NCBI GenBank assembly: GCA_048213135.1
Contig: PS015110.1
Coordinates: forward strand, 50,221 to 114,220
DNA: 64,000 nucleotides
Reading direction: 5' to 3'
Source: Reclinomonas americana ATCC 50394
Lineage: Eukaryota
The stretch's first letter is position 1; the number at the start of each line of letters is the position of its first letter. The notes under the pieces were generated by a model. That model had not been told where the DNA came from and did not search any database. It was given only the letters and a program-made list of their open reading frames with translations. The position numbers were made by a program, and so were the translations under genes. Below, piece by piece: positions 40,322-64,000 of the stretch.

Positions 40322-40777
40322 TCACTCCCTCGCCAACAACAACCTCTCCAACCTCTCCAACCTCCCCTGCATCTCCGCCACCGCCTGCTCCCTCCTCGCC
40401 CTCTCCTCCGCCAACTGCCGCCGCAGCTCGGCCACCTCGGCATCCTTCTCCCGCAACAACTCCGCATGCCGATCCACCTCCTCGTGCTGCTCATTAATGG
40501 CCTCCACCAGCACCGCCGTCACGCGCGAGTAATCGACCTGACGGAACTCGGTGCCGTGGCGCGACTTGTGACGCCACACCAGCTCGGGCCACACCGCCTC
40601 CAGCTCCTGCGCAATCACACCGATTTCGCGCTTGCCGGCGGTGGCGCCGACTTGATCGGCGGCGTACTCGCTCCACTCGAACGTGTAGCCGTGAATCGAG
40701 CGGAGGGCGTCGAGCACGGAGCTGCCGAGGGCCTCGCGCAGCGTTCGAACGTTGCTCTTGAGCGAGCGATCGGAGAA
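40322..40777 (-). other. Peptidase S74 / intramolecular chaperone auto-processing (ICA) domain plus terminal coiled coil
   Basis: FSDRSLKSNV (Ser codon 40774-40772, Lys codon 40759-40757) .. LDALRSIHGYTFEW .. REIGVIAQELEAVWPELV .. VDYSRVTAVLVEAINE, followed by heptads (LREKDAEVAELRRQL..MQGRLERLERLL). Confidence 0.92.
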
Positions 40778-43700
40778 GGCCGTGCCGAGGGTGATGGGAT
40801 ACGCGTTGCCGACGTTGTCGACCCAGCAGGGCTGCGGGTGGAAGGGAAGGGGATGAGCAATAGAAGGGTGAGGTTCTCCAACCTCTCTCGTTCTCTCTTG
40901 CTCTCTCACACAAACTGCCGTCTTTTCTCGCCCACTCTCTTCGTCTCGCGCTTGATCGTGTCACCGACAGCGTAGCTCGCACCGCCATTGGCCACCGTGG
41001 CACTCACAATGCCAGTGCTGACTGAGGACATGGCACCAGAAACGATCGTCTCTCACGCCCTCCACTTCGTATCTCTCTGCTTCCCATTCTCTCTCCCTTT
41101 ATTCTTCCCCCTCTCTGAACTTCTTTCGATCACTGCCTCCATCCCGATTCCTCGCAGAACCGCCAATAATTTATCGCTCACACACAGACCTCTCACTCTC
41201 ACCTCGGCAACTCACCATCATATCTCTCGCTTTCACTCTCTTCGCCTCTCGAGTCTCTCCTTTTCTCATTCTCTCTTCTTTTTCTCCCTCTATCTTTACT
41301 TCTTTTGGTCGCTGCCTTCTTCCCCATTCCTCGCAAACAACCATCTCTCATTTTCGCTCACACACAGACCTCTCACTCACACCTTCGCTCCTGTCCCTCC
41401 AACTCACATCTTGTCTCTCTCACTCCCTTTCTTCGCCTCGTTCATTGTCCTCACCTCTCCCCCCTCCTATTCCTCTCGCTGATTAACGCGCTCACTCACA
41501 AATGTCTCTCACTTTTTTCTTCCTTTCTTTCTCTCACCCACACAATTCCCATTTACCGTGTCTCCTCTCCAACTCCCTACGATCCTCTGAGAGAGAGCAT
41601 ACGATCATTCTCACTATCTTCCCCACAATATCTCAGTTGTTCCAGCTCTGAACAAACCAACTTCGTGTCTCTATCGCGCCCCTCCTAGTCTTTGCCATAC
41701 CTGTCCTTCCCTCCCTCTCACACATACACATTCTCTCCCTCCATCTCTCCCTTTCTCTCTCCCTCCCTCCTTCTCCCTCACTCTCTCTCCCTTACCCTCC
41801 CTCCCTTCTCCCTGTCCCCCTTCCCCCTTCTCCCTTTCCCTCACCCCCTCCCCCTTTCCCCTACTCACATTCACAGTAATTCCCATCTTGGTCGTTGCAT
41901 CGCACACATACAGCTGCCCATAACCACCAGCCTGCGTCGGCGGCGTAATCGCACGCGCCAAAATCGCAATCGTACCCGAGTCAAACTTGGTCAGTGACGT
42001 GGTAGAGAACACCGCGTTGCCGGCCACCGTCAACGTGTTGGTAGTTGACGGTAATGTGACATTGCCCGACAGCGTGGCGGCACCCGTGATCGCCACGGTG
42101 TTGGCAAACGACGCCGGACCGGCCACCGCAAAGGCGCCGGCGCCCACACTCGTAAACGAGGTAAGACCGGCAAAGGTAGTGGCGCCGGTAACCGACAGTG
42201 TGCCGCCCAAATTCGTGGCACTCGGGCCGGTCACCGTGAGACCCGCATTGAGGGTGGCGAGACCGGCGGAGACGGCAAAGGTGCCGGTGATCTGCGACAT
42301 GGAGAGAGGCATGGTTAGCAGCATATAAAAACAAGATTAACCTTCTGTTATGGAGATCTCGTCATCCACCATTTTAGCTCATTTAGATCTCTCTCTCTCT
42401 CTCTCGTACAGCCGCTGCGACACTCTCGACTCAGACACTCACAACCATCCATAGTGAGTGTGCATCGCTCACTTCGTTCGCTCTCTTGAACAACTCTGCC
42501 GATGCATGTCTCTGGCGGTGTCAAACATCCTGCGCGAGCGTGCATCACTCACTTTGTTCGCTCTCTCGAACTGCTCCTACGAACTCCACCATCCAAAGTG
42601 CGCGTGAATCGCTCATTTCGGTCGCTCTCTCAAATAACTCTCCTGCTGTGGCATGTTTGATGCCCACGCTTTCGACCATCACAAGTACGTGTATCGCTCA
42701 CTTCGTTCGCTCTCTTGAATCACTCTGACGCTGTCAATCATCCCCAGTGCATGTGAATCGCTCAAATCGTTCGCTCTCTCGAATCACATGCTTGCGTCTG
42801 ACGCTGTATACCATCCAAAGAGTGCATGAATCGCTCACTTCGTTCCCCTCTTGCCATTGCGTGCCTGTCACTGACGTCATCCAACATTTTAGCTCACTTC
42901 GATCTCTCTCTCGAGCAGCCGCTGCGACACTCTTGACTCTGACCCTCTCAGTCAATCTATCGCTCACTTCGTTCGCTCTCTTCACTCGCCTTCTGTGATA
43001 TGTCTCTGACGCTCTCCACCACTCTGGGTGCGCATATCGCTCACGTTGTTCGCTCTGTTGAATCACTCCGACGCTCTCCACCATCCAAGTTGTGCGTCAA
43101 TAGCTCACTTTGTTCGCTCTCTTGCTCACTCTCTAGTTGTGGCATGCTTATCTCTCACGCTCTCACACATGCGAGGTATGGGCATCGCTCACTTCGATCG
43201 CTACCTCGAATTGCTCTCTGACGCTTTCCACCATTCTCAGTGCGCGCGTATCGCTCACTTCGTTCGCTCTATTCAATCACTCTACGATGTCATTCTTCGT
43301 AGGTGTGCGTCAGTCGCTCACTTCGTTCGCTCTCTCAAATCACTCTCCTGTTGTGTCCGATGCTCTCACCTCGCACCTATCGCTCACTTCGTTCGCTCTC
43401 TCTACCCCTTTCCCCCTCTCTCCCTTCCCCTTCCACCCCCTTCCCCTTTCCCACTCACCGCCACATTGCTGCTGAACGTTCCCGTGGTGGCCGTCAGCGC
43501 ACCCACCGACGACGTGGTCGCCACCGTCAGGCTATTGAACGAACCGGAGCCACCCACCGTCAACGTCGACGGTGCCGTAATGGCCACACTCGACGCAAAC
43601 GTCACCAAACCGGCCACCGACAGCGTCGAGCTCAGCGTCGTCGCTCCGGTCACGGCCAGCGTACCACTCAGCGTGGTGGCACCGCCGCCCGTCACACTCA

Positions 43701-44587
43701 GCGTGCCCGGCGAGTTAATGGTGAAGCTGCCGGTGAGTGACGAGTTGCCGGTAATGGCCACGCCCGCCTGCATCGTCACAGCGCTCCTGACCAGCAGCGT
43801 GCCGTCCATGGTGGTCGGGCCGTTGCCCATTTGGAACTGCTTGCCGTCGGCAATCGTAAACGCGCCATTGTGTACCGTCGTTCCCGCCACCGTCAACGTG
43901 CCATTGAGGGTCGTCGCACCCGTACCCACCGCAAAGGAAAACGTGTCGGCAATCGAAACCGGAGCCAAGAAGCTGGTGGCGCCCGTCACCGACAGTGCAC
44001 CGACGTTGGTCTGCCCGGTCACCGAAAGCGTGCCGCCCAGGGTGGTGTTGCCGTTGCCCATGGAGAAGTTGTTTCCGTTGGGAATGACCACGTTGCCATT
44101 GAAGGAGAAGCTGCCGCCCAGTGCCGACAGGCCGCCATTCAGCGTCGTCAAACCGGCCACAGTCAACGAGCCGCCGAGGGTCGTGGCGCCCGTGCCCACC
44201 GTCAGTGTGTTGGCACCCGAGATGGAAATCGGTCCGTTGGAGGTGACACCGTTGCCGGCGGTGATGAGGCCCGTGATGTTGGCCGTGCCAGCCACCGTCA
44301 AGTTGCCTGCGATATTTTGTAAGAAAGAGACAGAGGGAATGAATTGCACGGCTGTGAACACTTCTCGCTCACCTCCCAACGTGGCCGTGCCGGTACCCAT
44401 GGTAAACGTCGACGCGTTCTGCAGCGTCATGTTTCCGTTGAAAGTCGACGCACCGCCCACCGACAGAGTCGACGACAAGGTGGTGGCGCCGGTCACTGCC
44501 AGCGTGCTGCCGAGAGTCGTCGCGGCGCTGGCGTTGAAGGTGCCGCCAACACTCAGTGCGCCTGTGATATCATCGAGTGAGTAGAGG

Positions 44588-44633
<46 letters not shown>

Positions 44634-45192
44634 CAGTACAACATAACAAACTACCACAGACGAAAGACACTATTGACTCCTACCAACCCTACAATCGCTC
44701 GCACGCACAGACAAGACACGCAGAATAAACAACGCAGAANNNNNNNNNNNNNNNNNNNNNNNNNNNNNNNNNNNNNNNNNNNNNNNNNNNNNNNNNNNNN
44801 NNNNNNNNNNNNNNNNNNNNNNNNNNNNNNNNNNNNNNNNNNNNNNNNNNNNNNNNNNNNNNNNNNNNNNNNNNNNNNNNNNNNNNNNNNNNNNNNNNNN
44901 NNNNNNNNNNNNNNNNNNNNNNNNNNNNNNNNNNNNNNNNNNNNNNNNNNNNNNNNNNNNNNNNNNNNNNNNNNNNNNNNNNNNNNNNNNNNNNNNNNNN
45001 NNNNNNNNNNNNNNNNNNNNNNNNNNNNNNNNNNNNNNNNNNNNNNNNNNNNNNNNNNNNNNNNNNNNNNNNNNNNNNNNNNNNNNNNNNNNNNNNNNNN
45101 NNNNNNNNNNNNNNNNNNNNNNNNNNNNNNNNNNNNNNNNNNNNNNNNNNNNNNNNNNNNNNNNNNNNNNNNNNNNNNNNNNNNNNNNNNNN

Positions 45193-45234
<42 letters not shown>

Positions 45235-48200
45235 AGTACAACATACAAATCCACAGCGAAAAGACACATTTGATCTCAACCCCTCAATCGCTCGCACGCA
45301 CAGACAAGACACGCAGATAAACAAACGCAGTGAGAGACAGAGGTCCGTACAACAAGGGATCAAGAAAGAAATAAGAGAGACATTTCCTCAGAATCACTCG
45401 AATTACATACATGCTCACTCGTGCACGCACAGAGAGAGAGAACATTGATAGAAGCGCAGAGACAAGTAAAAGCAAGAGAGCAGAAAACACAAAAATCCGC
45501 TGAGCAAGAGACACATATGACCGCAATCGCCAATCGCTCGCAAACAAGACAGGCGCACGAAGAGCGAGAGACAGACAGCGAGAGATGTCCGTACAACAAG
45601 TCTACGAAGCAGAATGACAGAGGTACAATCTCACACTCACTGTACAGATTCACGACTGACTGTATTCCTGATTTTGACACACAAACACAAGAGAGAGAGA
45701 GAGGGAGGGAGGGAGGGAGAGATGACCACGCAAACAGAATGCCTGACTGCGTGTTTGCGTGAGAGAGAATACATGCACACATACACACAGAGAGGGAGAG
45801 AGACAGAAAGAGAAAGAGAGAGAAAGCCAAACAAATCAACTGAATTCTTACACGCACTCGATCGCTCGCACGCAAACTAGTACACCTTGCTCAACAAGAA
45901 ACATACAGAGCAAAAAGCAACATATTCAGATCAGGTGACTGACAGTCTCGCTGACTAAGACACAGAGAGCGAAAGAGACACGCAAATGTGCGACTGACTC
46001 AGTGCATACAAATATAGAGAGACGCGACTCAGAAACAACATCAGTATGTGTTCAAACTCTCTTTGTTCCTCTTCGCCCTTCCCCTCCCAACCCTTCCCCT
46101 CCCCACCCTTCCCCTTCTTCCCCTCCCCTAATTTCCGCAACTCGTCACATTCATATTCTGCGACGCCGTGACATTCGCGGAGAACGTGCTCACACCACCC
46201 ACCGACAGCGTGCCGACAAGCTGCGTCGCACCGACCAGCACCTGCAAACCGCCCGCCGTCACCGTCACACCATTCTTGAAATCGGTGGCGCCGACCACAG
46301 TCAGCGCACCACCCAGTGTGGTCGTTCCCGTGCCAACATTCAACGTGTTGGTGCCGCTGATGCTCAGATCGCTGTTAAACGTAGCAATACCGCCCACCGT
46401 CAGCGTCGTCAGCAGATTGGTGGCGCCGGCCACTTGCATGGAGCCGCCAAAAACCGTCGGTCCGTTGCCGACCGTCACCGAGAAGCTGCTCGGCACCGTG
46501 AGGTTGCCGTTGATCGTCAGCGCCGACGTGAAATTGACGCCGCCATTAAAGGTGGCCAGTCCACCGACAGTCAGCGTGCCGCTCAGCGAGGTCGAACCTC
46601 CCACGGTCAAGCTATTCGTGCCCAGCACAGCGAGATTGCCGCCGTTCACATCCATGCCCGTGTTGGCCGTCACCTTGCCGGTCAGAGTCGACGTCGAGGC
46701 CACCGACAGCGTGCCGCCGAGTGAAGTGCCACCGGCCGTCACCGTGACGCCCGTAGCCACCGTCAGCGAGTTGGCAATGTTTGTCGCGCCCGTCACATTC
46801 AGCGTCGACAGCAGCGAGGTGCCGAGGAGCACCGAGAGAGTGCCTGTGAGGTGAGGGAAAGTGAGCAAGGCGATGGAAATAAGGACTCGAACAAAGGTGG
46901 AGCGAATACACATGCAGCTCTGTCAACTGGGACAACACACTCTCTCTCCCGCTTGCTCAGTCCATGATGCATTCACTCTGACAGCTCAATGAATCATTCA
47001 CTGACTTTCCTACTCATTCACACACACTCTCTCCCTCACGCAGACTCTCTCTCTCTCTCAACACACGCAGACTCACACTGACTAATTTAACCTCGCATCC
47101 TCCCTCACACACACACACACTCCCTATCTTCCCATGCCCACTCACTAACTCACACAACTCCGACTCACTTTTCTCTCTGATCTCCTCTCCCCTCCTTCTC
47201 CTCTCTCTCTCACTCACTCACTGCCACACACTCACACACTCACACACTCACTCACTCACTCACTCAGTCACTCACTCACTCACTCACTCACTCACTCACT
47301 CACTCACTGCCTTTCTCACTCACACACTCACTCACTCACTCACACACTCACTCACTCACTCACTCACTCACTCACTCACTCACTCACTCTCTCTCTCTCT
47401 CACTCTCTCTCTCTCTCACTCACTCACTCACTCACTCACTCACTCACTCACTCACTCACTCACTCACTCACTCACTCACTCCCTCACTCACTCAGTCACT
47501 CACTCACGCACCCCTTCCCTGTTCCTCTCCTTCTCTCCCCTTCCCCTTTCCCCCTTCACCCCTTTCCCTTTCATCCCCCTTTCCCTTTCTCTTCCCCTTT
47601 CATCTTCCCTTCCCTTTCATCCCCCTTCCCCTGCATACCTTGGAGAGTGGTGGGCCCATTCCCCACCGTCACCGTCTGCCCATTGGCAACCGTAACCGAC
47701 CCATTAAACGACGACGCCCCGCTCACCGTCAACGTCGACAGCGTCGTCGCACCCGTCACCGACAGCGTACCTCCGAGCGACGTCGCACCATTACCAATGG
47801 TCACCGATTGTCCGTTGGCCACCGCCACGGCGCCATTCAGTGTGGTCGAGCCGGCCACCGTGAGCGAGCCGCCGAGCGTCGAGGTGCCGGTGCCAACCGT
47901 GAAGGTGCTCGTGCCCGTCACGGCCACATTGCCAGAGAAGGTGGCCGTGGTGGCCGCCAGAGACGTCATCGTGGTGGCACCGGTGACGGCAAGGGAGCCC
48001 TGCAGTGCAGTGGCGCCGCCAGCCACCGTGAGTGTCGACGGACTGGCCACAGTGACGTTGCCGGCGACGGAGAGTGAGCTGGAGAGCGACGCGGCGCCCG
48101 TCACACTCAGTGTGCCACCGGAGATGTTCAGACCGCCGGCCAGAGTCGCCAGTCCGCTGTTCACCGTAAAGGTGTTGGTGCCGAGAATGTTGACATTGCC

Positions 48201-48647
48201 GTTGAAATCGGCCGCATTCGCCGTCAGCTTGCCCGTCAACGCAGTGGTGCCAGTGACCGCCAGCGAGCCGCCGAGCGTGGTGGCACCCGAGGCCACCGAC
48301 AGCGTACCGCCACCAGTGATGGAGACGNNNNNNNNNNNNNNNNNNNNNNNNNNNNNNNNNNNNNNNNNNNNNNNNNNNNNNNNNNNNNNNNNNNNNNNNN
48401 NNNNNNNNNNNNNNNNNNNNNNNNNNNNNNNNNNNNNNNNNNNNNNNNNNNNNNNNNNNNNNNNNNNNNNNNNNNNNNNNNNNNNNNNNNNNNNNNNNNN
48501 NNNNNNNNNNNNNNNNNNNNNNNNNNNNNNNNNNNNNNNNNNNNNNNNNNNNNNNNNNNNNNNNNNNNNNNNNNNNNNNNNGTACCGTCGGTACGTACGT
48601 ACGTACGTCGTACGTCGTCGTCGTCGTCGTTCGTCGTCGTCGTCGTC

Positions 48648-48739
<92 letters not shown>

Positions 48740-51700
48740 AGTCACTCACTTCTCCCTTCCCCCCCTTCTCCTCCCCCTGTGCAGCCGCCTCGCCCACCAA
48801 CCTGGGCGGCACGCTGACGGTCGCCGGCAACACCACCCTCAACAGCGCGCTGTCAGTCATTGGCGGCGGTGCGGTCTCGCTGGACGGTCCGGTGACGGTG
48901 CAGAGCGGGCGTACGTTACGCTGCTCGGCGGTGGTGCCACCACACTTGGCGGCTCGCTGTCGGTAGGCGGCACCTCCACGTTCTCCTCGCTGGTGACCGC
49001 CAATGCCGGTGTGACGGTGACGACGGGTGCGCTGTCGCTGACCGGCACCACTGCTCTGTCGGTGTCGGCCGGTTCGTCCACCTTTGGCGGCACGCTGAGT
49101 GTCGCGTCGACGAGTTCGTTTGGCAACGATGTGACGATTGCCGCCGGCGGCAATTTCACTGTCACCAATGGCACGAGTACGCTGGGCGGCGCGGCCTCGA
49201 TTGCGGGTGCGGCCTCGATTGGCAGCACGCTGAGCGTCGGCGGCGCCTCCACCCTCAACGGCAATGTCAACATTACGGGCACGAGTACACTGACGGTTGG
49301 CGCTGGTGCCACGTCGCTGGGCGGCACGCTGACTGTGACGGGTGCGGCGACATTCTTGGGCGGCGTCAACTTTACTGGTGGATCGACCGTCAACGGCAAC
49401 CTCACCGTGGCCTCGCCGTTCAACTTTACGGTGGCCGGTGCCGCCTCGACGTCGTCGATTGGCGGCTCGCTGAATGTGACGGGCGTGACGACACTGAATG
49501 GAGCGCTGACGGCCAACTCGACCACGACGCTGAACGGCAACGTAAATATTGCGTCGCCGGCGACGCTGACGGTGGCCGGTGCGGTGCCGACGGTCCTCAA
49601 CGGCTCGCTGTCGGTGGTCGGCGTCACCAACCTCGGCAACAANNNNNNNNNNNNNNNNNNNNNNNNNNNNNNNNNNNNNNNNNNNNNNNNNNNNNNNNNN
49701 NNNNNNNNNNNNNNNNNNNNNNNNNNNNNNNNNNNNNNNNNNNNNNNNNNNNNNNNNNNNNNNNNNNNNNNNNNNNNNNNNNNNNNNNNNNNNNNNNNNN
49801 NNNNNNNNNNNNNNNNNNNNNNNNNNNNNNNNNNNNNNNNNNNNNNNNNNNNNNNNNNNNNNNNNNNNNNNNNNNNNNNNNNNNNNNNNNNNNNNNNNNN
49901 NNNNNNNNNNNNNNNNNNNNNNNNNNNNNNNNNNNNNNNNNNNNNNNNNNNNNNNNNNNNNNNNNNNNNNNNNNNNNNNNNNNNNNNNNNNNNNNNNNNN
50001 NNNNNNNNNNNNNNNNNNNNNNNNNNNNNNNNNNNNNNNNNNNNNNNNNNNNNNNNNNNNNNNNNNNNNNNNNNNNNNNNNNNNNNNNNNNNNNNNNNNN
50101 NNNNNNNNNNNNNNNNNNNNNNNNNNNNNNNNNNNNNNNNNNNNNNNNNNNNNNNNNNNNNNNNNNNNNNNNNNNNNNNNNNNNNNNNNNNNNNNNNNNN
50201 NNNNNNNNNNNNNNNNNNNNNNNNNNNNNNNNNNNNNNNNNNNNNNNNNNNNNNNNNNNNNNNNNNNNNNNNNNNNNNNNNNNNNNNNNNNNNNNNNNNN
50301 NNNNNNNNNNNNNNNNNNNNNNNNNNNNNNNNNNNNNNNNNNNNNNNNNNNNNNNNNNNNNNNNNNNNNNNNNNNNNNNNNNNNNNNNNNNNNNNNNNNN
50401 NNNNNNNNNNNNNNNNNNNNNNNNNNNNNNNNNNNNNNNNNNNNNNNNNNNNNNNNNNNNNNNNNNNNNNNNNNNNNNNNNNNNNNNNNNNNNNNNNNNN
50501 NNNNNNNNNNNNNNNNNNNNNNNNNNNNNNNNNNNNNNNNNNNNNNNNNNNNNNNNNNNNNNNNNNNNNNNNNNNNNNNNNNNNNNNNNNNNNNNNNNNN
50601 NNNNNNNNNNNNNNNNNNGAGAGAGAGAGAGAGAGAGAGAGAGAGACAACAAGGAGAGGGCGCAACCCGCACAGAAAATAACACTCTTTACTACCAAGTG
50701 GTCGCTCGCTTCGCTCGCTCGTTTCAATTTTCTCTTGCAACACAAATGCTCAGCGCTCTCCGTTGTTGCGCTCACACTCGCATCAACCGCTTCGCTCGCT
50801 CTTTCTTATCATTCGCTTAAAAACCAGTGCTTCGAGCTCTCTGTTTTTGTCTCTCATTTGTACAACAACCTCTCTTGATGAACAACCTCTCTTGATGTGT
50901 GCAGTCGCTCGCTTCGCTCGCTCGTTCCAAATCGCTTGCAACACCAGTGCTTTACGCTCTCAGATCCTGCCGCTTAATCCTGCGCCAATCTCACGCTCGC
51001 TTCGCTCGCTCTTTCCCAACACCCCCCTCCTCTCTCTCTATCGCTCGCTTCGCTCCTATCCCTTCCCCACCACTCACCTAAGACACTCAGCGCCCCCGTC
51101 ACCGTCGCCGACGACCCAAACGTGGCCACTCCCGTCACCCCCAACGTACTGCTCAGCGTCGTGGCCCCGGTCACCGCCACCGTTCCACCAAGCGTCACTG
51201 CGCCCGTGCCCGTGGTCAGCGTGTTCGTGCCCGGAATCGACACGTTACCGTTGAGCGTCGAGGCGCCGCCGACCGACAGCGAGCTGCTCAACGTGGTGGC
51301 ACCGGCGGCGGTCAGAGTGCCACCGAGCGTGGTCGCCCCAGTGCCCACCGTAAACGTATTGGTGCCGGTCACCGACGTGTTGCCGTTAATGGTGGTCGCG
51401 CCCGTCACATTGGTGGTGCCGGTCAGCGACGTGGTGCCGTTGACCACAGTCAGATTGTTGCCAGCGGTGATGGTCACCGAGCCGGCAATGCTAGTGCCGC
51501 CGTTGAACGTGGCGAGACCCGTAAATGTCGAGGCGCCCGTCACGGCCAGCGTGCCGCCAAGTGTTGTCGCACTGCCGACACCCGTCGTGAGGTTTCTCGT
51601 TGGCGAGAGCGTTACATCGCCGTTAAAGGTCGACGCGCCACCAAGAGAGAACGGACCCGTGATGGTGGCGCCGCCGGCACTCACCGTCAGCGCGCCACCG

Positions 51701-54700
51701 AGCGTGGTGGTGCCCGAGTCGACCACCAGGTTGCCGGCGCCAAAGAGACGCACGTTGCTGTTGAAGGTCGCCGCGCCAGTGGTGTTTAGAGTGCCGCCGA
51801 TCGAGGTGTTGCCGGCGGCGCTGAGCGTACCACCCAGCGTCGTCGCACCCGTGCCGACAGTGAACGTATTGGCGCCGGTCACCGATGTGTTGCCGTTCAA
51901 GGTGGTGGTGCCGGTGACCACAGAGTTGCCAGTCACTGTCGAGTTACCGGCCACAGACAGTGCGCCACTGACCGTGGTCAGGCCAGTGCCCGTCGTCAGC
52001 GTCGTGGCGCCCGTCAGTGTCGTGTTGCCAGAGAGCGTAGTGGCANNNNNNNNNNNNNNNNNNNNNNNNNNNNNNNNNNNNNNNNNNNNNNNNNNNNNNN
52101 NNNNNNNNNNNNNNNNNNNNNNNNNNNNNNNNNNNNNNNNNNNNNNNNNNNNNNNNNNNNNNNNNNNNNNNNNNNNNNNNNNNNNNNNNNNNNNNNNNNN
52201 NNNNNNNNNNNNNNNNNNNNNNNNNNNNNNNNNNNNNNNNNNNNNNNNNNNNNNNNNNNNNNNNNNNNNNNNNNNNNNNNNNNNNNNNNNNNNNNNNNNN
52301 NNNNNNNNNNNNNNNNNNNNNNNNNNNNNNNNNNNNNNNNNNNNNNNNNNNNNNNNNNNNNNNNNNNNNNNNNNNNNNNNNNNNNNNNNNNNNNNNNNNN
52401 NNNNNNNNNNNNNNNNNNNNNNNNNNNNNNNNNNNNNNNNNNNNNNNNNNNNNNNNNNNNNNNNNNNNNNNNNNNNNNNNNNNNNNNNNNNNNNNNNNNN
52501 NNNNNNNNNNNNNNNNNNNNNNNNNNNNNNNNNNNNNNNNNNNNNNNNNNNNNNNNNNNNNNNNNNNNNNNNNNNNNNNNNNNNNNNNNNNNNNNNNNNN
52601 NNNNNNNNNNNNNNNNNNNNNNNNNNNNNNNNNNNNNNNNNNNNNNNNNNNNNNNNNNNNNNNNNNNNNNNNNNNNNNNNNNNNNNNNNNNNNNNNNNNN
52701 NNNNNNNNNNNNNNNNNNNNNNNNNNNNNNNNNNNNNNNNNNNNNNNNNNNNNNNNNNNNNNNNNNNNNNNNNNNNNNNNNNNNNNNNNNNNNNNNNNNN
52801 NNNNNNNNNNNNNNNNNNNNNNNNNNNNNNNNNNNNNNNNNNNNNNNNNNNNNNNNNNNNNNNNNNNNNNNNNNNNNNNNNNNNNNNNNNNNNNNNNNNN
52901 NNNNNNNNNNNNNNNNNNNNNNNNNNNNNNNCCACCGACACTGAGTGTGGACGAGAGGGTGGAGGCGCCGGCCACACTCAGCGTGCCGCCGAGCGTGGTC
53001 GCACCAGTGCCCACCGTCAGCGTGTTCGTGCCCGTAATGTTCACGTTGCCGTTGGTGTTGAGGGAGCCGTTCAGCGTCGTGGTGCCTGCCGCGGTCAGGT
53101 TGCCAGTCACGGTGGCGTTGCCGCCAATCGTGGCGTTGCCGCCGTTCAGCACCAAATTGCTGGTGCCCGTAAGCGTCACGTCGTTCGAGAACGTCGACAC
53201 GCCACCCACCGACAGCGTACCGGCCAGCGTCGTCGTGCCCGTCACTGCAATGTTGCCGTTAAAGGTGGTGGTGGTTGGCGGCCCCATGCCCGCCAGAATC
53301 GTGAGACCGCCCGTAATCGTCACACCACTATTAAAGGTNNNNNNNNNNNNNNNNNNNNNNNNNNNNNNNNNNNNNNNNNNNNNNNNNNNNNNNNNNNNNN
53401 NNNNNNNNNNNNNNNNNNNNNNNNNNNNNNNNNNNNNNNNNNNNNNNNNNNNNNNNNNNNNNNNNNNNNNNNNNNNNNNNNNNNNNNNNNNNNNNNNNNN
53501 NNNNNNNNNNNNNNNNNNNNNNNNNNNNNNNNNNNNNNNNNNNNNNNNNNNNNNNNNNNNNNNNNNNNNNNNNNNNNNNNNNNNNNNNNNNNNNNNNNNN
53601 NNNNNNNNNNNNNNNNNNNNNNNNNNNNNNNNNNNNNNNNNNNNNNNNNNNNNNNNNNNNNNNNNNNNNNNNNNNNNNNNNNNNNNNNNNNNNNNNNNNN
53701 NNNNNNNNNNNNNNNNNNNNNNNNNNNNNNNNNNNNNNNNNNNNNNNNNNNNNNNNNNNNNNNNNNNNNNNNNNNNNNNNNNNNNNNNNNNNNNNNNNNN
53801 NNNNNNNNNNNNNNNNNNNNNNNNNNNNNNNNNNNNNNNNNNNNNNNNNNNNNNNNNNNNNNNNNNNNNNNNNNNNNNNNNNNNNNNNNNNNNNNNNNNN
53901 NNNNNNNNNNNNNNNNNNNNNNNNNNNNNNNNNNNNNNNNNNNNNNNNNNNNNNNNNNNNNNNNNNNNNNNNNNNNNNNNNNNNNNNNNNNNNNNNNNNN
54001 NNNNNNNNNAGCAGCACCAGTGGTGCTCAGCGTGCCAGTCAGCGCCGTGTTGCCTTGCACCAGCAGCGACGAGTTGAGTTGCGTGACGCCGCCCACCGTC
54101 AGGTTCGAGCTCGCATTCACCAGCGTGACTGAGCGGTAAAACAGGCCGTCACCCTGCGTCGTCAGTGCACCCGCCACTGTGGTGTCGCCAGCCACAGACA
54201 GCGAGCTGGAGAGCGTCGTCGCACCCGTCACCGACAGAGTATGCGCATTGATAATGGACACGTCGCCGTCTACCGACAAGGAGTCCTTCATCGAGGTGGT
54301 GCTGTGGAATGTCGAGGCGCCCGTCACATCCAGCACACCGCCGAGTGTGGTCGTGCCCGTGTTGACCGTCAAGCTGGCCGCACCAATGAGTGACACATTG
54401 TCGTGCAACAGAGTCTTGCCGGTGACCTCCAGTCCGCCCGACATGGTGGTGTCGCCGGCGACAGAGAGCGTGGAGCCGAGTGAGGTGGTTCCAGAGACCA
54501 CGGTCAAGTTGGCATTCGAGCTGACGGAAACGTCTTTCGTGAAATTGGAGAGTCCGCCCACCGACAGCGCGCCACCCAGCGAGGTGGTGCCACTGGTCAC
54601 AACGAGCGGCACTCCGGCACTGAGCGTCACCTGTCCGTTGAATGTGGAAGTGCTTTGCGCCGTCAGCGCGCCCGACAGCGTCGTCGTGCCGGTGACACCG

Positions 54701-57700
54701 AGGGTGCCGCCCACCGACAGCACACCGCCAATGTTGACAGTGCGCGTCGGGTCGACCGTCACATTGTTCGAGAACGTCGACGTGCCGCTGACGGTCAGTG
54801 CTCCATTCGCCGCCAGCGTGCCCGCGACGGAAACAGACCCGCCAAACGACGCTGCTCCCGTGCCGACGGCAAAGGTCTGTCCGTTGGCCACCGAGACGGC
54901 GCCACTGAAGAGCGAGCTGCCGGTCACACTCAGGCCGTTGGACAGGTTGCACGTACCGGTGACCAGCAGGTTCTTCACCGTGGTGGCTCCCATCAACACC
55001 GTCAGCGTGCCGGTGGTCACCGAAACGCTGCCGTCAAACTGCGCACTGCTGCCGACCGAGAGCGTCGACTGCATCTGTGCGGCACCGGCCACAACCAGAG
55101 GCCCACCCAGTGTCACTGTGCCGGTTCCGACAATAAGACCGTTGGAGCCAGCCACAGTCACGTCGGCGTTAAATGTCGACGGCGCACTGGCCGTCAGCGC
55201 ACCGCCGAGAGTTGTGACACCCACCACTGACAGTGTGGTGGACATGAGCGCCGAACCAGTCACTGTCAGTGCGGCGCCGACCGCCATGTTGCCAGTGGTG
55301 GACGCAGCACCGGTCACCGTCAGGCCCGACGACAGACTCGTGTTGCCGGCGACAGTCAGTGTGCCACCAAACGAGGAGGTGCCAGAGACCACCGAAAAGG
55401 CGTTGTTGCTCAGCACCGTGACGGCACCACCAAACGAGGTGGCGCCATTGGCCGACAGTGCACCCGCAAAAGTCGAGGTGCCAGTCACCGACAGCGTGCC
55501 CGTGACGGTGGCGTTGCCGCCAACCGCCAGCGCCGAAGTGCCGGTAATGGTCACTGGCCCGCTGGCGGTGATCGCGCCAGTGGTGGCCGCGCCAGTGAGT
55601 GTCGTCGTGCCCGTCACGGCCAGCGCGCCGCCGAGTGTGGTCGGTCCCGACATGACCGTCAACGCCTTGCCCGTGTTGATGCTGACGTCGCTGTTGAAGA
55701 GCGACACTCCAGTCACCGTCAGTGTCGACTGCAGCTGCGTGGCACCAGTGACCGTCAATGCTCCGCCCAAGGTCGACGGCGTGCCGACACCCACAGAGAA
55801 TGTGGTGCCCGCCGCCACGGTGGCCCCGCCATTAAAGGTGGCCATTCCGGTCGTCGCCAGCGTGCTACCCAGAGACGCCGCACCGGCCAGTGTCAGCGTG
55901 CCGTTGAGCGTGGTAGGCCCGGTGCCGACAGTAAAGGCCTTGGTGTCGGCCACAGAGACCGCCGACTGGAACAGCGACGCGCCGGCCACCGTCAGCGCAC
56001 CACCCATGGTCGCCGTGCCGGACACCAGCAGGGTGCCGCCGAGCGAGGTGGCGGCCGTGGCCACGGTGAATCCGGCCGCGCCAAGAATCTGCACAGCGCC
56101 AGTCAAATTGGCGCCGGCCGTGGCCGAAAACAGTCCGGCCACCGACGCCGTGCCGGCCACCGTCAGGTTGCCTCCCAGCGTGGTGGCTCCGGTACCGACT
56201 TGCAGGTTGGCCGTGTTGGCCAACACCACATTGCTGGCAAACGAGGCCACACCTGTCACACCCACCGTTGAGGCAAACGTCGCGGCGCCCGCCACCGCCA
56301 ACGACGAGCCGAGAGTTGTCGCCGAGTCGGTCACCGTCAGCGTGGCGCCCGTGGCCAGCGTCACACTACCTTGATGAAGCGTGGTAGATGCAGCGGTAAG
56401 TGCGCCACTCAGCAGCGTCGAGCCCGTCACACTCAGGGTGCCGCCGAGGCTGGTCGCCGCATCCGTGACTGTAAACTTGCGCGTCGTGCCAACGATCACG
56501 TCGCCACCCGCAAAGGTGACGGCGGCGTTCGTTGTCAGCACGCCGTTCAGCGTCGTGGTGCCGGCAACGGTGAGCGAGCCGCCAATCGCCGTCACGCCGG
56601 TGCCAACGGTGAGTGGTGTGGCGCTGTTGGCAATGGTCAAGGTGCCGGTCAGCGTTGTGTTGCCGCCGACGCTGAGCGACGAAGTGAGCGTGGTGGCGCC
56701 GGTCACCGCCAGCGTGGAGCCGAGCGATGTGGCACCGTTGACCACGGTCAGTGTGCGGCCCGTGGCCACTGTCACGTTCGTGTTCAAGGTGGCGGAGCCG
56801 CCACCCACCGACAGACCGGCAGTCAGCGTGGTGAGACCGTTCACCGTCAGCGAACCATTCATCGTCGTCGCACCGGTGCCGATGGTGACCGTCTGCGAGT
56901 CGGCCACCGAGAGGCCGGCATTCAGCGTGGCCAGTCCACCCACTGTCAGCGTTGACGTGAGCGACGTGGCACCGGTGACGCCCAGAGTGCCTCCGAGCAC
57001 CGCAGGCGCGGTGGCCACCGTAAAGGTGGAGGTATTGCCGAGGATGGAGACGGTGTTGTTGAGGGTGGTGGCACCGTTGATGACGGCAGAACCAGAGAGC
57101 GTGCTCGCGCCGCCCACCGTCAGCGAACCGCCCAGGGCGGTGGCACCGCCGCCGGCAAGTGTCAGCGTGCTGCCGGCTCCAATCGTCACACTGCCGCTGA
57201 GGGTGGAAGCACCGGTCACCGAAATGGTGCTGTTGAAGGTGGAGGCGCCCGACACGGACAGCGTGCCGCCGAGTGCGACGGCGCCCGTGCCGACTGTCAG
57301 CGTGTTGGTGCCTGAGATGGTCACCGAGTTCGAGAACACGCTGGCGGCTGTCGCCGAGAGCGCACCGTTGAGTGTGGTCACGCCGCTCACCGTCAGAGAG
57401 CCGCCGAGAGTGGTGGCGGCCGAGGTGACCGCCAAGGCCGCACCCGCCGGCAACGCGATACCACCGGCAAAGGTGGCCAGTCCGCCCACCGAGAGCGTGG
57501 AGCTCATGGTGGTGGCGCCAGTGACGGCTAGACTGCCACCCAGCGATGTGGCCGCATTCGCCACCGTCAGCGAGCTGCCCATGGCCAGCGATACGTTGCC
57601 GGCAAAAGTGGCCAGACCCGACGCACTCAGCGTGCCATTGACAACAATCGAACCTCCCATGGCCACCGTCAGCGACTTATTCGCCGCCAGTGTCACATTG

Positions 57701-60700
57701 TCGTTCAGTGTCGAGGTGCCAGTCACCACCAGCGTGGAGCTGAGGGTGGTGGCGCCTGTCACCGTCACTACGCCTCCAAACGACGAGGCGCCGTTGCCGA
57801 CAATCAATGCAGTGCCATTGGCCACCGTCACCGTGTTCTGGAAGAGCGCGGTTCCGGCAGCCGTCAGCGCGCCACTCAGCGTGGTCACACCCACCACCGA
57901 CACGGCACCATTCACCGTCGTCAGACCCGTGCCTGTGCTCAACTTGGCCGCACCCGTCAGCGTCACGTCGCTGGCAAACGTGCTGGCACCGCCCACCGAC
58001 AATGTCGACGTGAGCGCTGTGGCACCTGAGACCGACAGTGTGCCGCCGAGATTGACTGCAGTCAGGGCGCCAGTGGTCATCGTCTGGCCCATGGAGAGCG
58101 TCAGCGAGTTGTTGAAAATGCCGGCGCCGTTCACCGTCAGCGCAGAGAGCACCGTCGGACCGGTGGACACGGTCAGCGTCTTGCCGTTGCTGACATTGAC
58201 GTCGCCGGAGAAGGTGGCGGTGGATGCCACCGCCAGCGTGTCGCCAATGGTTGTCGGCACACCGGCCAGCACGCTAAACGAGGTGCCGCCAGTGACCTGC
58301 AGGCCGCCGGCCGTCGTGGCCAGTCCAGTGACCATGACGGTCGACGAGAGAGTCGTGGCGCCCGTCACACCGAGAGTGCCACCCAGCGATGTGGCGCCAC
58401 CGACCACCACCAAATTGTTGGTGCCGAGCACAGTCAACGGACCACCGCCAACATTGGCGCCAGCCGTGGCCGACAGGAATCCCGACAACGTCGTCACGCC
58501 CGTCACAGTCAGCGTGCCCGACAGTGAGGCTGCACCACCGCCTACCATCGTAAACGTGCGAGCATTAATCAGCGTCACATTGCCGTCAATGGTGGTCGCC
58601 GCCAGCAAGCTGACAGCACCGCTGAGGGTGGTGGCACCCGTCACCGCCAGCGTGCCACCGAGAATCGTGGCACCCGTGCCCACTGTCAGCGGCGTGGCGC
58701 CCGACAGAGTCACACTGGTGGCAAACGACGCGGCTCCAGTGACTTGCACCGCGCCGGCAAAGGCGGCCGTGGAAACGTTGGAGGTCAGCGACAAGTTGCC
58801 GCCCAGAGTCACCGCGCCCGTGCCCACTGTCAGCGTGGAAGCGCCGGAGAGCGTAAGGTTACCGTTGAGAGTGGTGCCGCCAGTAATAGCAATCCCACCC
58901 AGCAGTGTCGTCAGGCCTGTCACCGACAGTGTGCCGCCAAGCGTGGTTGCGCCCGTGCCGACGGTAAATGTCTGCAAGTTGGCCAGCGACACCGCACCGT
59001 TGAATGTGGTGGTGCCGGTGACCACGAGCGTGCCGCCGAGAGCAGTGGCTCCCGACACCACCGTCAGCGACTTGCCGTTGATGACACTGACGGCGCTGTC
59101 AAAGATCGATGTGGCGCCAGTCACACTCAGTAGTCCAGTCAGCGTCGTGGTGCCGCTGACCAGCAGCGTGCCACCGAGCGACGTCGCTCCGTTGCCGACA
59201 GTGAGAGTAAACGTGTTGGCCACGCTCACATTGCCGTTCAGCGTGGTGGCGCCGCCTACAGTCAGCGTCGTGGCAAGGCTCGTGGCGCCAGAGACCACCA
59301 GCGTGGAGCCGAGGGAGGTGGCGCCGCCCGCCACCGTCAACGTGTTGACGCCAGCCACCAGCAGGTTGCCGTTGAGGGTCGTCAGTCCCGTGACACCGAG
59401 TGTGCCAGCCAGAGTGGTGTTGCCGGTGACTGCCAGTGTGCCACCAAGTGTTGTGGCACCGGTGCCAACCGTGAGCTTGGTGCTCGCGCCCGACACGGAA
59501 ACATCGTTGCTGAATGTGGAGACGCCAGTGACACCCAGCGTGCCGCCGAGAGTCGTGGCGCCAGTGGTGACCACCAGCGGTTTGCCGGCCGTCACCGTCA
59601 CATCGCCAGAGAAAGTGGAGACGCCAGCGACGCCCAGTGTGCCGCCAATGGTGGTGGCACCGCCGTTGACGGAAAAGTTGCGCACGCCCGTAATGGCCAC
59701 ATCGTTGTTGAAGGTGGAGGTGCCGGCGACCACCAGCGTGCCGTTCAAGGCTGTGTTACCGGTGGTGGTCAGCGAGCCGCCGAGCGTCGTCGCTCCCGAC
59801 ACCACCGAGAGTGTGCGCGTGGCCTCCAAGGTCACATTGCCATCAAAGGTGGACGCCGCGTTGGCCGAGAGAACACCATTGAGTGTGGTGGCACCCGCCA
59901 CCGCGAGCGTGCTATTCAACGTCGTCACACCAGCCACCGTCAGTGTCGACGCGCCCGTCAGTGCCACATTGTTGGCAAACGTGGTGAGGCCGCCAACCGA
60001 GAGAGTGCTCAGCAACTGCGTCGCGCCGGTCACCGTCAGCGGTCCACCCAGTGACACCAGGCCGGTGCTGGTGGTGACGGTTCCGTTGAGTGCCGTGGCT
60101 CCCGTCACCGTCAGCGTGCCCTGCGCCGCCACATTGCCCGTCAGCGTGCTCGCTCCCGTCACTGCCAGTGTGCCGCCGAGCGAGGTGGCCCCGCCGACCA
60201 CCGTGAACGGACTCGTGCCCTGCACTGTGGTCGGGCCATTGAACTCCGCAGCCGACACGGCGTTGTTGGCAAAGATTGTGCCGGCCGAGGTGAGCGTCTG
60301 GCCCACCTGCACGGCCTGTTGGAAGTTGGCCAGGCCGCCAGTGACAGTCAGTGTCTTGGAGTTGGTGACCACAACGTCGCCGTTAAACGTCGTCGTGCCT
60401 TGCACCGACAGCGTCGACGCCAGAGCCGTCGCGCCGGTCACATTCAGCGTGCCGCCAAGAGTAGAAACTCCCGTGCCGACATTGAAGGCGTTGGCGCCGG
60501 TCACCGACAGTGTGCCGTTGACAGTGGTGGCCGCCGACACGGCCAGAGTGCCGCCGAGCACCGTGGCACCAGTGCCGACGGTGAATGTATTGGTTCCGGT
60601 GATGGAGACATTGTTGTTGAAGGTGGTGGCACCGTTGGCCGTCAGCGGACCCGTCAGAGTCGAAGCGCCCGTCACATTCAGAGCACCGCCCAGCGACGTG

Positions 60701-63700
60701 ATGCCGTTGCCGACGGTGAGGGGGACGCCGGCGGCCAGAGTCACGGCCGAACCGAAACTGGTGGCGCCGGCCACCGCCAGCGAGCCACCCAGTGTGGTGG
60801 CGCCGGTGCCGACAGTGAACGGACTGGTGCTGGTCACCGACAGCGCGCCATTGATGGTGGCACCGCCGTTGGCGGTAAGGAGGCCAGTCAGCGTGCTCGT
60901 GCCGCCAATCGTCAGCGTGTTGGTGCCACTGACAGCCACGTTGCCACTGAAAGTGCTGGCGCCGCTGACCGACAGCGTGCCACCAAGAGTGGTGGCACCC
61001 GTCGCGACGGCAAAGTTGGCCGGCGACGCCACCGTGACATTGTCGCTGAGTGTGGTGGTGCCGGAGACGGCGAGTGTGCCGTTGAGAATGGTGGGACCGG
61101 CCGTGCTGACACCAATGTTGCCGGAGAATACGAGATTGCCGACGACAGTGAGACTGCCATTGACGGTGGTCGACGTGGCCGGAATGATCACGGTGCCGCC
61201 ATTGGTGCCGAGCGACACTTGCGTGCCCGACGCCGACAGCACACTCGAGGTGCCGACCACGGCGTCGAGCTTGGTGTTGCCCTTGATGAAGATCTCCGGG
61301 GCCACCAGCGCCATTTGCGTGCGCGTGCCACCGGATCCAACCTCGCCCAGCGTGAGCGAAATGTTGCCGAGGGCGCCGCTCGTGCGCGTAATGGTGATGA
61401 CATCGGAGGCGGGGTTGATGACGACGCTGCCGGCCTGGTTGGCGGCATTGGTGGCCGTCAGCGTAATCGACGACTTGGACGACACACTCATCACATCGGC
61501 GAGAATCGATGCCGACGCGGCATTCGCCGTGCCGTTGGCCGACACCGTGAAGGCGCCGGTGGCCAGCACATTGTGGTTGGTGACACGCGCTGTCAAGTCA
61601 ATGTTACCGGCGACCATGCCGGCACCGATGTTGAAGACGGTGGTGCCGAGTTGATTGATGACAGTGAAAGTGGTGGCCGTCACCGAATGCGTGTTTTGCA
61701 CCACCGCCGTGTACGACGAGCCGGCCACCGACACCGCAGTGCCATTCGGCGCCACGTACTGGCCGAGACGGAGTGTGCCGAGCTCGGAGCCGAGGGTGAG
61801 GGTGGACGGGGTGATGCTGTGCGTGGTGCCCGACATGGTCACCGTCGGTGCCACCAACGAGAAGAGCGACGACGGCGCCACATCCAACGTCGTACTCGTC
61901 ATGCGTGTGTATGGACCTGTGATGCGCAAGCTCGGTGCACCCGACGTGCCTGGCGTCAAATCCGACTCCACGACCACGGTCGATCCTTGCATGGTGACCG
62001 AGGGGCCTGAAAGTGCGCCAATCGCCACTTGGGTCGTGGTCGCCGCCGCAATGCCCATGACGATGCGGTTGCCGGCCAGCGTCAGCTGTGTGGTGTTGAC
62101 GCTCGAGCCGACAATGACCTTCGGGCCGATAACCTGCAGCAAGCCAGCCGTCGTCTGTCCGAGATCGACCAAGTACTGCTGTGCGGCTTGCGTGGCCGCC
62201 AACTGTGCACTCGTGTCGAGAAGCACCAGTTGCGAGGTGGCCGCCAGCACTGGATTCACGCTCAGCGTCACGCCGCCCGAGGTGGCACCCGACGACTTGA
62301 TGGTCGCCTGTCGCGCCAGCAACGAAAACGTGTCGATCTCAGTGGCCGTCGGCGTCTGCACCGACACGGTGCCAGTGGCCTGCAGCGCCAGCGAGTACGA
62401 CTTGAGGGTGATGCTGTTGGTGTTGATCGACGGCACCGTCTGCACCGTAATGGTGCTCGTGGCCGGTTCGCCCACCACGCTTCCATCGCCGCCGATAAGC
62501 ATGGTGGCGGCCTTGGTGCTCCACGCACCCGTCACCAGCGCCTGCAGCGACACGCCACGCGTCGTAATGGTGGTCAACGTCTGACCGAGGGTCAGCGAAC
62601 CCGACGGACGCAGCAGCAGGTTGGTGGGCGTAAAGTCGTACGACGGTCCCACAAACGAGGCCGTGCCACTGGCCAGCGTCATGGTGAAGGGACCGGTGTT
62701 GAGCGCAAACGATGTCGCCGTCGTCATGGTCAGCGTCGGCAACGTAATCGTGTTGTTCAGCGCCACATCCGAGGCCGACAGCGCAAATTGCTTGCTGGCC
62801 ACCGTCACCACCGCGTTCGCCGCATTGCCGAGGTTGACGGCCGTCGGCAGCGCCGCACCGGAACTGCCGAGATTGATGGTCGACGCGGCCGCGGCAGTGA
62901 ACACACCGCCGGCAACCGTCGCGTCCATGGTAATCAGAGGCGCCTTGGCCGTCAGCATCTTGGTGGCGGCGCGCGTGTCCAGATCCAGTGACACCACTTG
63001 CGTCTCGTCAAACAGCTGCATGCGCTGCGTGGTCATGGAGAAGGTGGCCGGCGTCGCCGCTGCACCCTGCTTGACAACCACCGACGAGGTGCCGGTCTCG
63101 TTGAACGACGTCAACGCCATGGCCTCGGCGTTGAGCGTAAAGGAGCGCGACTGTGCGCCACCCGAAGTGCCCGTCAGCAAGTGCGCATTGGCCGCGTACG
63201 TGGTCATGTTGAAGGTGGTGGCGGTGATGGTGTTGGACACGTTTGCCGCCGCCGTCGTGAGCGCGATCGATGTGGTGGTGGCCGTCGTACCAATCGTCAC
63301 CGTTGGGGCGGTGANNNNNNNNNNNNNNNNNNNNCCAGGTGGTGCCGGAGAGGGTGGCCGTCGGGGCGGTGAGCGTCAGCGAGGTGCCAATGTTCATCGT
63401 CACGGTGTTGGAGGCGAGAGTGAACACGGGGAGCGTGAACAAGTTGGTGCCGACGGCCGACCACGCGGTGATGGTAAATGTGCCGGCGTCGGCGGTCAAC
63501 GAGGTGAGCAGGTTGTTGCCGAGGACAATGCTGGTGGTGAGCGAGGCCGTGTTGCCGGCATTCTTGTTCTTGCCAATCTCCACCGCCAAGCCATCCAGGG
63601 TGACGCCGTTCGTGCCATTGGCGCGAATACGAGAGCACTCGACGCGCGCCGGGAACGTGGGATCATTGTCCAGCGTCATGGCGCACAGAGACGAGGTGCC

Positions 63701-64000
63701 GCGCGACATGACCACCGTGCTCGGTGTGCCGGCCGTCACCACCAGTCCCGACACATTGGCGCCAGAGCCAACTTGCATCGAGGCTGCGACGGTGGCCAGC
63801 GCCGTGTATGTGCCGGCATTCAGCGCCACGGTCGTCACCGGCGAAGCATTCGTGCCGATGCGCAGCTGCGTCGTGGCCAACAAGTCAATGTTCGCCGCCG
63901 TCGTGGTCACCAGGGTCGAAGATGTCAGCGCAATGTTCGTGTTGACAATGGCGCCAGCGGAGCCAATCGTCACCGTCGGAGACGCCAGTGTCACTGAGGT
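40322..64000 (-). CDS. Giant beta-repeat fibre protein (tail-fibre/adhesin-like) with C-terminal peptidase S74 chaperone domain; 5' end outside the window
   Basis: Exons: >64000-51078 (three internal gaps), flipped contig 48785-49642 joined to 48327-47639, 46843-46142, 44561-44373, 44306-43459, 42291-41869 and 40831-40322 (TGA). All junctions are GT-AG and phase-compatible. About 15.5 kb of sequenced coding DNA with repeats like GATTLGGTLSVTGATTL. Confidence 0.9.
42464..43401. repeat. Intronic array of 14 copies of an approximately 23 bp core ATCGCTCACTTCGTTCGCTCTCT with variable 35-60 bp spacers
   Basis: Cores start at 42464, 42544, 42608, 42693, 42757, 42830, 42889, 42959, 43036, 43100, 43184, 43250, 43313 and 43379; a degenerate copy lies near 42374. 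Confidence 0.9.
50701..51057. repeat. Intronic cluster of about 5 copies of (T)CGCTCGCTTCGCTCGCTC
   Basis: Copies near 50701, 50788, 50904, 50994 and 51040. Confidence 0.85.

Follow-up and report, generated by a model that had tools for sequence, protein, structure and literature searches.

A probable intron-bearing gene for a giant S74-ended fibre protein in Reclinomonas americana

Introduction

Can a protist chromosome carry, in an intron-bearing gene, a giant fibre protein of the type known from phages and viruses, together with the chaperone domain that would fold it and then cut itself off? This question is raised by a stretch of 64,000 nucleotides (nt) from Reclinomonas americana ATCC 50394 (GenBank assembly GCA_048213135.1, contig PS015110.1, positions 50,221 to 114,220 of the forward strand), referred to here as the window and numbered from its first letter. 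The window is eukaryotic scaffold sequence interrupted by 18 runs of N, six of which lie inside the locus under study, 40322-64000, so that all values given for exon count and gene length are minimum values. An earlier interpretation made from the letters and their open reading frames (ORFs), hereafter the sequence-only reading, had described this locus as a gene for a giant tail-fibre-like protein ending in a self-cleaving S74 chaperone. We consider it fairly probable that the locus is one nuclear multi-exon eukaryotic gene, with its 5' end beyond the window, and that its product of at least about 5,000 residues forms a homotrimeric triple-beta-helix fibre of great length, which its own intramolecular chaperone (ICA) domain would first fold and then release. 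In what follows the locus is called the fibre gene.

Results and discussion

The last exon encodes a Peptidase_S74 domain

The last exon of the fibre gene was matched by Pfam family PF13884 (Peptidase_S74) with E 1.1e-13 and 51.6 bits (cut-off 22), the match covering profile positions 1-57 of 58. An alignment of this exon with its 38 nearest relatives (39 sequences) was used to analyse conservation, and S20, D21 and K25 of its SDRSLK motif were found in columns conserved to at least 90%. An AlphaFold2 (AF2) model of the exon, with a pLDDT of 91.4, displayed a small alpha/beta domain followed by a single charged helix of 68 residues (residues 101-168). When this model was searched with Foldseek, the best match in the PDB was the ICA domain of MyRF (7dc3; E 2.8e-6, TM-scores 0.54/0.65, 23% identity), followed by 3gw6 (K1F endosialidase), 3gud (GA-1 neck appendage) and 4uw8 (T5 fibre), all of which are intramolecular chaperones. 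Sequence comparisons led to the same group of proteins: phmmer aligned the exon with 6f45, the long tail fibre of phage S16, at its chaperone end (E 1.4e-7), while a profile built from the alignment matched 6f45 (E 2.6e-18), the MyRF ICA domain 7dc3 (E 1.3e-16) and tail fibre 8jov, as well as 8ond ('bd2133'), 8oml and 8ojn (E 9.1e-8 to 2.4e-3). Autocleavage is predicted to occur between Phe19 and Ser20 of the exon. The S74 domain with an intact Ser-Lys dyad, claimed in the sequence-only reading, was thus borne out, the domain by the HMMER comparison with Peptidase_S74 that had been proposed as a check.

The features that accompany the ICA domain in MYRF/MrfA were also looked for. No transmembrane segment follows the domain, the protein ending instead in the charged helix, and no Pfam family, NDT80 DNA-binding domain included, was found in the 3,463 residues scanned (the product of the largest coding block, P0002, the penultimate exon and the 5' block), a slight doubt being left by the N-terminus of the protein, which lies outside the window. 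On these two grounds the protein is classed as one with an ICA domain but not as a MYRF. Among 1.84 billion representatives the exon gave 15,663 matches, the best identities being about 45-53%, and among phage records it matched 327, the best of which (a Synechococcus phage) was 37% identical.

A long repeat shaft is modelled as an intertwined trimer

Read from 64000 to 40322, the minus strand holds nine coding blocks without stops, the S74 exon being the last, which sum to 4,919 codons (Table 1). The count of more than 5,100 codons in the sequence-only reading is borne out for these 4,919, and the surplus is reached only by adding the approximately 286 codons of a plus-strand piece. Likewise, the repeats that it had described throughout the protein were found from about residue 717 of P0002 onwards, whereas the first roughly 940 codons in the window are T/A/S-rich and non-periodic. 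As the 5'-most block is open at the window end, the gene extends further upstream. The repeat portion, or shaft, is built of 45-residue (12+12+12+9) and 33-residue (12+12+9) units, with autocorrelation peaks at 45, 12 and 33, and repeat residues total roughly 3,800-4,050. P0002 is composed largely of T (20.7%), G (14.8%), A (12.8%), L (11.3%), V (11.0%) and S (10.8%), with only 3.3% charged residues and one cysteine, and a Pfam scan of the shaft and the N-terminal part returned no family. As DNA, the units are spaced by multiples of 99 and 135 nt and are 60-79% alike, which points to an old array and to neither assembly stutter nor recent expansion. The units have thus diverged as DNA while the protein pattern has been kept, which argues for selection on the protein.

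A 300-residue piece of the shaft, P0002 residues 1170-1469 (window 58906-59805), was modelled with 27 further segments of this protein aligned to it as input. The monomer displayed short strands about every six residues with a pLDDT of 77. A Foldseek search with the monomer found nothing at E 0.001 or better, the weak rows being beta-solenoids, and the ESM Atlas returned only low-complexity look-alikes at a recognition of 841, which is under the useful range. Three copies modelled together gave an ipSAE of 0.92, 0.91 and 0.91 in three runs, against 0.00 for the best of three controls. Partner pLDDT never fell below 96 in these models, 91% or more of the contacts were common to the runs, and about 2,130 contacts were distributed over the whole length. 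Residue i of chain 2 lay with residue i+6 of chain 3, and chain 3 lay with chain 1 at i+6 to i+8. A register of i to i+6 is as expected of an intertwined triple beta-helix, in which every third strand of each sheet would come from each chain and 18 residues would rise three layers. A homotrimeric intertwined beta-fibre is accordingly what the model yields, and the modelled piece agrees with the homotrimer postulated in the sequence-only reading, where prediction of tiled fragments as trimers had been suggested. A beta layer measures 4.8 Å; with one layer per six residues of each chain, the repeat portion would extend over about 0.3 micrometre. N-glycosylation sequons were also considered as possible evidence of secretion and were rejected, as their number, 52 in 3,101 residues, equals that predicted from composition.

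One piece of the locus, 48582-49642 (1,061 bp, between the N gaps 48328-48581 and 49643-50618), has its repeat coding sequence on the plus strand, and the frame is shifted near 48,915-48,920. Of the 11 inverted-repeat pairs, 8 were pairs of coding repeats with one arm in 49041-49543, and the remaining 3 were (GA)n/(TC)n microsatellites. The piece is probably a small contig that was misoriented in the scaffold, the alternative being a real inverted fragment.

The coding blocks are separated by host-type introns

Four GT..AG introns, three of them gap-free, separate blocks of the fibre gene with phases agreeing at both ends and the reading frame kept, and a fifth donor, TTAG/GTGAGT at 51077, leads into a gap (a slash marks the exon end). 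Stop codons occur soon after each donor. Each donor is followed by a G/A-rich tract, and the introns end in a C/T-rich tract or a microsatellite. The donor-plus-purine-tract form displayed by the five fibre-gene donors was also present at 4544, 13949, 16100, 19626, 21899, 22066, 32279 and 32511, all outside microsatellite arrays. The host-style introns of the sequence-only reading, including the one immediately before the S74 exon, were recovered as predicted junctions with matching phases. In a side observation, the unusual form GTTGCG followed by a G/A-rich tract was seen to recur at 19626, 21899, 32279 and 46141, beside the commoner GTGAGT-plus-GGGAAGGGG tracts, and it looks like an intron signature present throughout the genome of the organism.

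On a single gap-free contig, 36196-44739, the S74 exon lies together with two shaft exons, two introns in full and an ankyrin-like ORF, and further along the window lie a multi-exon USP7 gene, a kinase gene and an SPA-domain gene. This gap-free linkage of the S74 exon to host-type introns and sequence rules out bacterial or phage contamination, as the sequence-only reading had concluded from the introns. To take the introns as showing that the gene is not viral would be an overstatement, as there are eukaryotic viruses that bear introns (see below). In the 40 kb 3' of the fibre gene, 20 ORFs were scanned (USP7, kinase, SPA, ankyrin and weak matches) and none was recognised as a viral hallmark, the scan covering the 3' flank only and the other flank lying beyond position 64000. 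The GC content of the introns, 0.51-0.52, is the same as that of the rest of the window.

Relatives of the shaft are giant and mostly metagenomic

A word-indexed search with 741 residues of the shaft returned 39 proteins of 1.7-5 thousand residues, nearly all of them metagenomic. Those named are labelled as Pelagibacteraceae ('tail fiber domain-containing'), Saccharimonadales, Kapabacteria and the yellow-green alga Tribonema minus. PF13884 was present in 8 of the 39 and bactofilin-like stretches in others; one begins with the phage Mtd_N domain, and phmmer with the window S74 exon matched the C-terminal end of 4. The window protein itself was unmatched by bactofilin PF04519 at E up to 1, such matches being confined to some of the relatives. 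Most of the giant relatives have the 12-residue period in common, while a period of 44/45 was found only in P0004 and in the Tribonema protein P0011. The giant proteins described as 'tail fiber domain-containing' (for example P0006, of 4,299 residues and labelled Pelagibacteraceae, P0008, P0010 and P0019) share with the fibre gene the 12-residue period and the T/G/S/A/V/L composition, at 30-41% identity over most of the 741-residue query, and several have an S74 end. They differ from it in being single unbroken ORFs on contigs of 14-60 kb of prokaryotic or viral type, and some add bactofilin-like or FG-GAP stretches. The 33/45-residue shaft, a simple and nearly charge-free repeat predicted to form a triple beta-helix, has no Pfam model and links a set of these giant metagenomic proteins.

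The Tribonema minus protein, the only named eukaryotic relative of the shaft, is 32% identical over about 900 residues and contains an FN3 domain, but neither an S74 end nor a signal-like N-terminal start was found in it. A literature search for Tribonema and endogenous viruses gave nothing relevant. In IMG/VR, five viral contigs encode weak shaft relatives, and one of these, named as a giant-virus metagenome-assembled genome (MAG), has an ORF of at least 2,602 residues. The similarity is 29-39% (46% only over 43-residue matches, on two contigs) and is partly compositional. As a separate observation, two viral contigs (L005 9632-17437 and L002 4844-12736; one named as a giant-virus MAG, one of 143 kb) encode proteins of at least 2,600 residues whose fibre-like repeats are rich in N/T/S/L and which have no Pfam fibre domain.

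Comparison with known S74 systems

With phage fibres and tailspikes (3gw6, 3gud, 4uw8 and 6f45) the fibre gene has in common the C-terminal S74/ICA domain, its Ser-Lys dyad and its fold, as well as, to judge from our model, a trimeric beta-helical shaft upstream; the repeats of this shaft are moreover related to proteins with phage fibre domains such as Mtd_N. In contrast to phage fibres, however, the window gene lies in a eukaryotic chromosome, is split by introns and is several times longer, no virion-attachment or enzymatic domain was seen in the part of the gene within the window, and its S74 domain shares no more than about 37% identity with any phage record. Nor do the 20 ORFs of the 3' flank provide a setting among virion genes, as no viral family was found in them.

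MYRF/MrfA are likewise eukaryotic genes with an ICA domain, and that of MyRF is the best structural match as mentioned above. According to the title of PMC8326128, MyRF has a short beta-helical stalk ahead of the ICA domain. Here, in contrast, a shaft of thousands of residues lies upstream, and the fibre would be the product, whereas cleavage of MYRF frees a factor. A third comparison is offered by 8ond, 8oml and 8ojn, which we take to be prey-recognition fibres of Bdellovibrio and thus a case in which a cell, and not a virus, uses phage-type fibres. These are bacterial proteins of only a few hundred residues, and their match is confined to the part preceding the dyad.

Weighing the alternatives

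Several observations speak against a single working eukaryotic gene for a trimeric fibre. The locus is broken by six N runs, and one repeat piece lies on the opposite strand with a frameshift. The joining of the exons is predicted from sequence alone, and the donor GTTGCG placed at 46141 is weak. The non-repeat tail of the penultimate exon (41869-42291) had no match among the proteins collected, and the last junction is therefore unconfirmed by homologues. No match to the S74 exon at E 1e-30 or better was found among the 1.84 billion representatives, and the Joint Genome Institute (JGI) metagenome contigs yielded no orthologue but a single locus of 29% identity, so that no close orthologue was found in either. 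The fibre-gene exons have a GC content of 0.61-0.66 and a third-position GC content (GC3) of 0.70-0.89, as against a GC3 of 0.59-0.67 in the neighbouring USP7, ankyrin and coiled-coil ORFs, which fits a foreign origin and codon bias equally well. As for the trimer, of proteins solved as same-chain pairs 20 of 30 attained the ipSAE mark, and of those solved as single chains 1 of 23, in a calibration that used two copies and other alignments, while here three copies and the protein's own internal-repeat alignment were used; and since solved triple beta-helices exist, the trimer pass may reflect the model's memory of them. Some of these points could be accommodated if the locus were not one working gene at all but a set of fibre-gene fragments, silent or decaying, or else paralogous pieces strung together in one scaffold, as the six N runs within 24 kb, the inverted 1-kb piece with its frameshift and the want of any orthologue to demonstrate constraint (in either database) would allow. 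We regard this as improbable, as the other eight blocks on the minus strand are all stop-free with compatible phases, stops stand shortly past each donor, the units have diverged as DNA with the protein pattern kept, and the two 3' introns with three exons lie in one gap-free contig. A mis-assembly of bacterial or phage DNA into a eukaryotic scaffold might be envisaged from the phage proteins being the nearest named relatives of the S74 domain (the 327 records above, at best 37% identical) and from the 10-kb exon, which is intron-less and has a GC content of 0.65 against about 0.52 in its flanks. Yet the S74 and two shaft exons are split by GT..AG introns with host-type microsatellites in one gap-free contig with the ankyrin-like ORF, and no close bacterial or phage record was found, so that this explanation is hardly credible.

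A weightier rival is that the fibre gene belongs to an endogenised eukaryotic virus, for instance a polinton-like virus, giant virus or mirusvirus, and encodes its host-attachment fibre. It would then lie in an element that extends past 64000 or be left as a captured remnant, and the fibre would decorate virions and not the cell. The literature lends this some substance. In polinton-like viruses from protist genomes, modular fibre proteins with an S74 end and a size of up to 3.9 thousand residues are described as ubiquitous (PMC12220804), and S74 adhesion proteins together with a huge beta-helical repeat protein are described in giant viruses of algae (PMC13620141, PMC13659346). As far as the available text goes, these viral fibres (PMC12220804, PMC13659346) are likewise large and modular, carry one C-terminal S74 domain, occur in protist assemblies and are thought to be trimeric; they differ in having laminin-G, collagen, adenovirus-fibre or FhaB modules and in lying within viral elements, whereas the shaft of the window gene is uniform, with units of 33/45 residues, and the gene is split by at least five host-type introns and followed on its 3' side by host genes. 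A further study (PMC12768974) reports spliceosomal introns in mirusvirus genomes, in up to 36% of genes, and describes nucleocytoviruses as generally without them, the exceptions being decaying endogenous elements, pandoraviruses and a few chloroviruses; introns in endogenous nucleocytoviruses are taken there as a sign of assimilation. Since some eukaryotic viruses carry introns, introns alone do not make this a host gene. The weak shaft relatives on the five IMG/VR contigs, that of the giant-virus MAG among them, the exon GC3 well above that of neighbouring genes, and the absence of a signal-like N-terminal start in the sole named eukaryotic relative would also suit a virus. Against it, no viral hallmark was recognised in the 40 kb 3' of the gene, the introns, at least five in number and 0.8-1.6 kb long, share the host-gene signature and so indicate long residence, the frame is intact over 4,919 codons, unlike that of a decaying element, and the similarity to the viral contigs is low. 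Host-type introns, an intact frame and the visible host genes thus speak against a recent or decaying insert, and we judge a virus-owned fibre to be unlikely, while keeping it well ahead of the two explanations above.

Predicted assembly and possible role of the fibre

On the reading of one nuclear fibre gene, the C-terminal S74/ICA domains and the terminal helix would bring three chains into register, after which the shaft of 33/45-residue units, with one short strand per about six residues, would fold as an intertwined triple beta-helix. The Ser20-Lys25 dyad would then cut between Phe19 and Ser20, freeing a chaperone of about 150 residues and leaving a stable, almost uncharged fibre. We tentatively suggest, at rather less than even confidence, that the eukaryotic cell has domesticated a fibre module of phage or virus type, and that the ICA chaperone builds a trimeric triple-beta-helix filament of approximately 0.3 micrometre that serves as a cellular structure, for example a hair of the surface or flagellum, a filament for adhesion or the thread of an extrusome.

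Since S74 fibres have been described in polinton-like and giant viruses, the overall design of an S74-ended giant fibre is already known, and the sequence-only reading went too far in calling it the best candidate for an undescribed system. In the Creative Commons-licensed PMC articles and bioRxiv, no account was found of a giant S74 fibre gene that bears introns and belongs to a eukaryotic cell itself. If the cell expresses the gene, the ICA chaperone, in eukaryotes known only from MYRF-type factors, would prove able to assemble fibres of great length encoded by a nuclear gene with introns, and the protein would be a molecular candidate for an unidentified protist filament. A domesticated cellular filament would give the self-cleaving chaperone a first structural role in eukaryotes, apart from its use in MYRF, and the protein would be among the longest beta-helical proteins known. 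Were the gene instead that of an endogenised virus, it would be a clear case of a viral attachment gene that gained host-type introns with about 5,000 codons intact, and would bear on the assimilation of endogenous viral genes.

Layout of the locus and neighbouring features

The coordinates of the coding blocks, introns and domain features are collected in Table 1. The largest block is separated from the 5'-most visible block by a 20-N gap (63315-63334), at which the frame is shifted.

Table 1. Coding blocks, predicted introns and domain features of the fibre gene, in window coordinates (slash, exon end)
Feature	Position	Strand	Remarks
5'-most visible block	63335-64000	-	222 codons, open at window end
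P0002 block	54010-63312	-	3,101 codons, intron-less
Aperiodic T/A/S-rich part, P0002 residues 1-716	61165-63312	-	Pfam scan: no family
Repeat shaft, P0002 residues about 717-3101	54010-61164	-	Units of 33 or 45 residues, 12+12(+12)+9
Repeat coding island	52932-53338	-	135 codons, flanked by N runs on both sides
Repeat exon	51078-52045	-	322 codons, beginning inside gap; donor TTAG/GTGAGT, phase 1, at 51077
Repeat exon	48784-49642	+	About 286 codons; preceded by (TC)n and cag acceptor at 48783
Repeat exon	47639-48327	-	229 codons, beginning inside gap; donor CAAG/GTATGC, phase 1
Intron	46844-47638	-	795 nt, GT..AG, phase 1/1; contains (CTCA)n microsatellite
Repeat exon	46142-46843	-	702 nt, 233 codons; entry phase 1; predicted donor A/GTTGCG, phase 1
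Intron	44562-46141	-	1,580 nt, phase 1/1; 453-N gap inside; (GA)n/(CT)n tracts
Repeat exon	43459-44561	-	1,103 nt, 367 codons; acceptor CACAG/GC, phase 1; donor GCG/GTGAGT, phase 0
Intron	42292-43458	-	1,167 nt, GT..AG, phase 0/0; 8 copies of 68-nt repeat
Last shaft exon	41869-42291	-	141 codons; repeats, then about 45-residue non-repeat tail
Intron	40832-41868	-	1,037 nt, GTGAGT..CAG, phase 0/0; immediately before S74 exon
S74/ICA exon	40325-40831	-	169 codons; stop codon 40322-40324
Ser20 of S74 exon	40772-40774	-	
Lys25 of S74 exon	40757-40759	-	
Helix 101-168 of S74 exon	40328-40531	-	

Two of the introns contain repeats. In intron 42292-43458 the copies of the 68-nt repeat lie at 42423-43355, with a conserved core (families D12/D13) and a spacing of 63-270 nt, and in intron 46844-47638 the (CTCA)n microsatellite occupies 47201-47511 with about 77 units. 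Long (GA)n/(TC)n runs border several of the gaps and may explain the breaks in the assembly there.

On the 3' side, the ankyrin-like ORF (39461-40102, minus strand) has weak Pfam Ank matches (E 0.004-0.006) and starts about 220 nt past the fibre-gene stop, after a (CA)n tract; it may be a small gene of its own or serve as an alternative 3' exon. Further 3', the USP7-type ubiquitin hydrolase gene (24029-28040, minus strand) is multi-exon and carries UCH and USP7_ICP0_bdg domains. The only database relative found for it is 49% identical, from which the organism seems to be poorly sampled.

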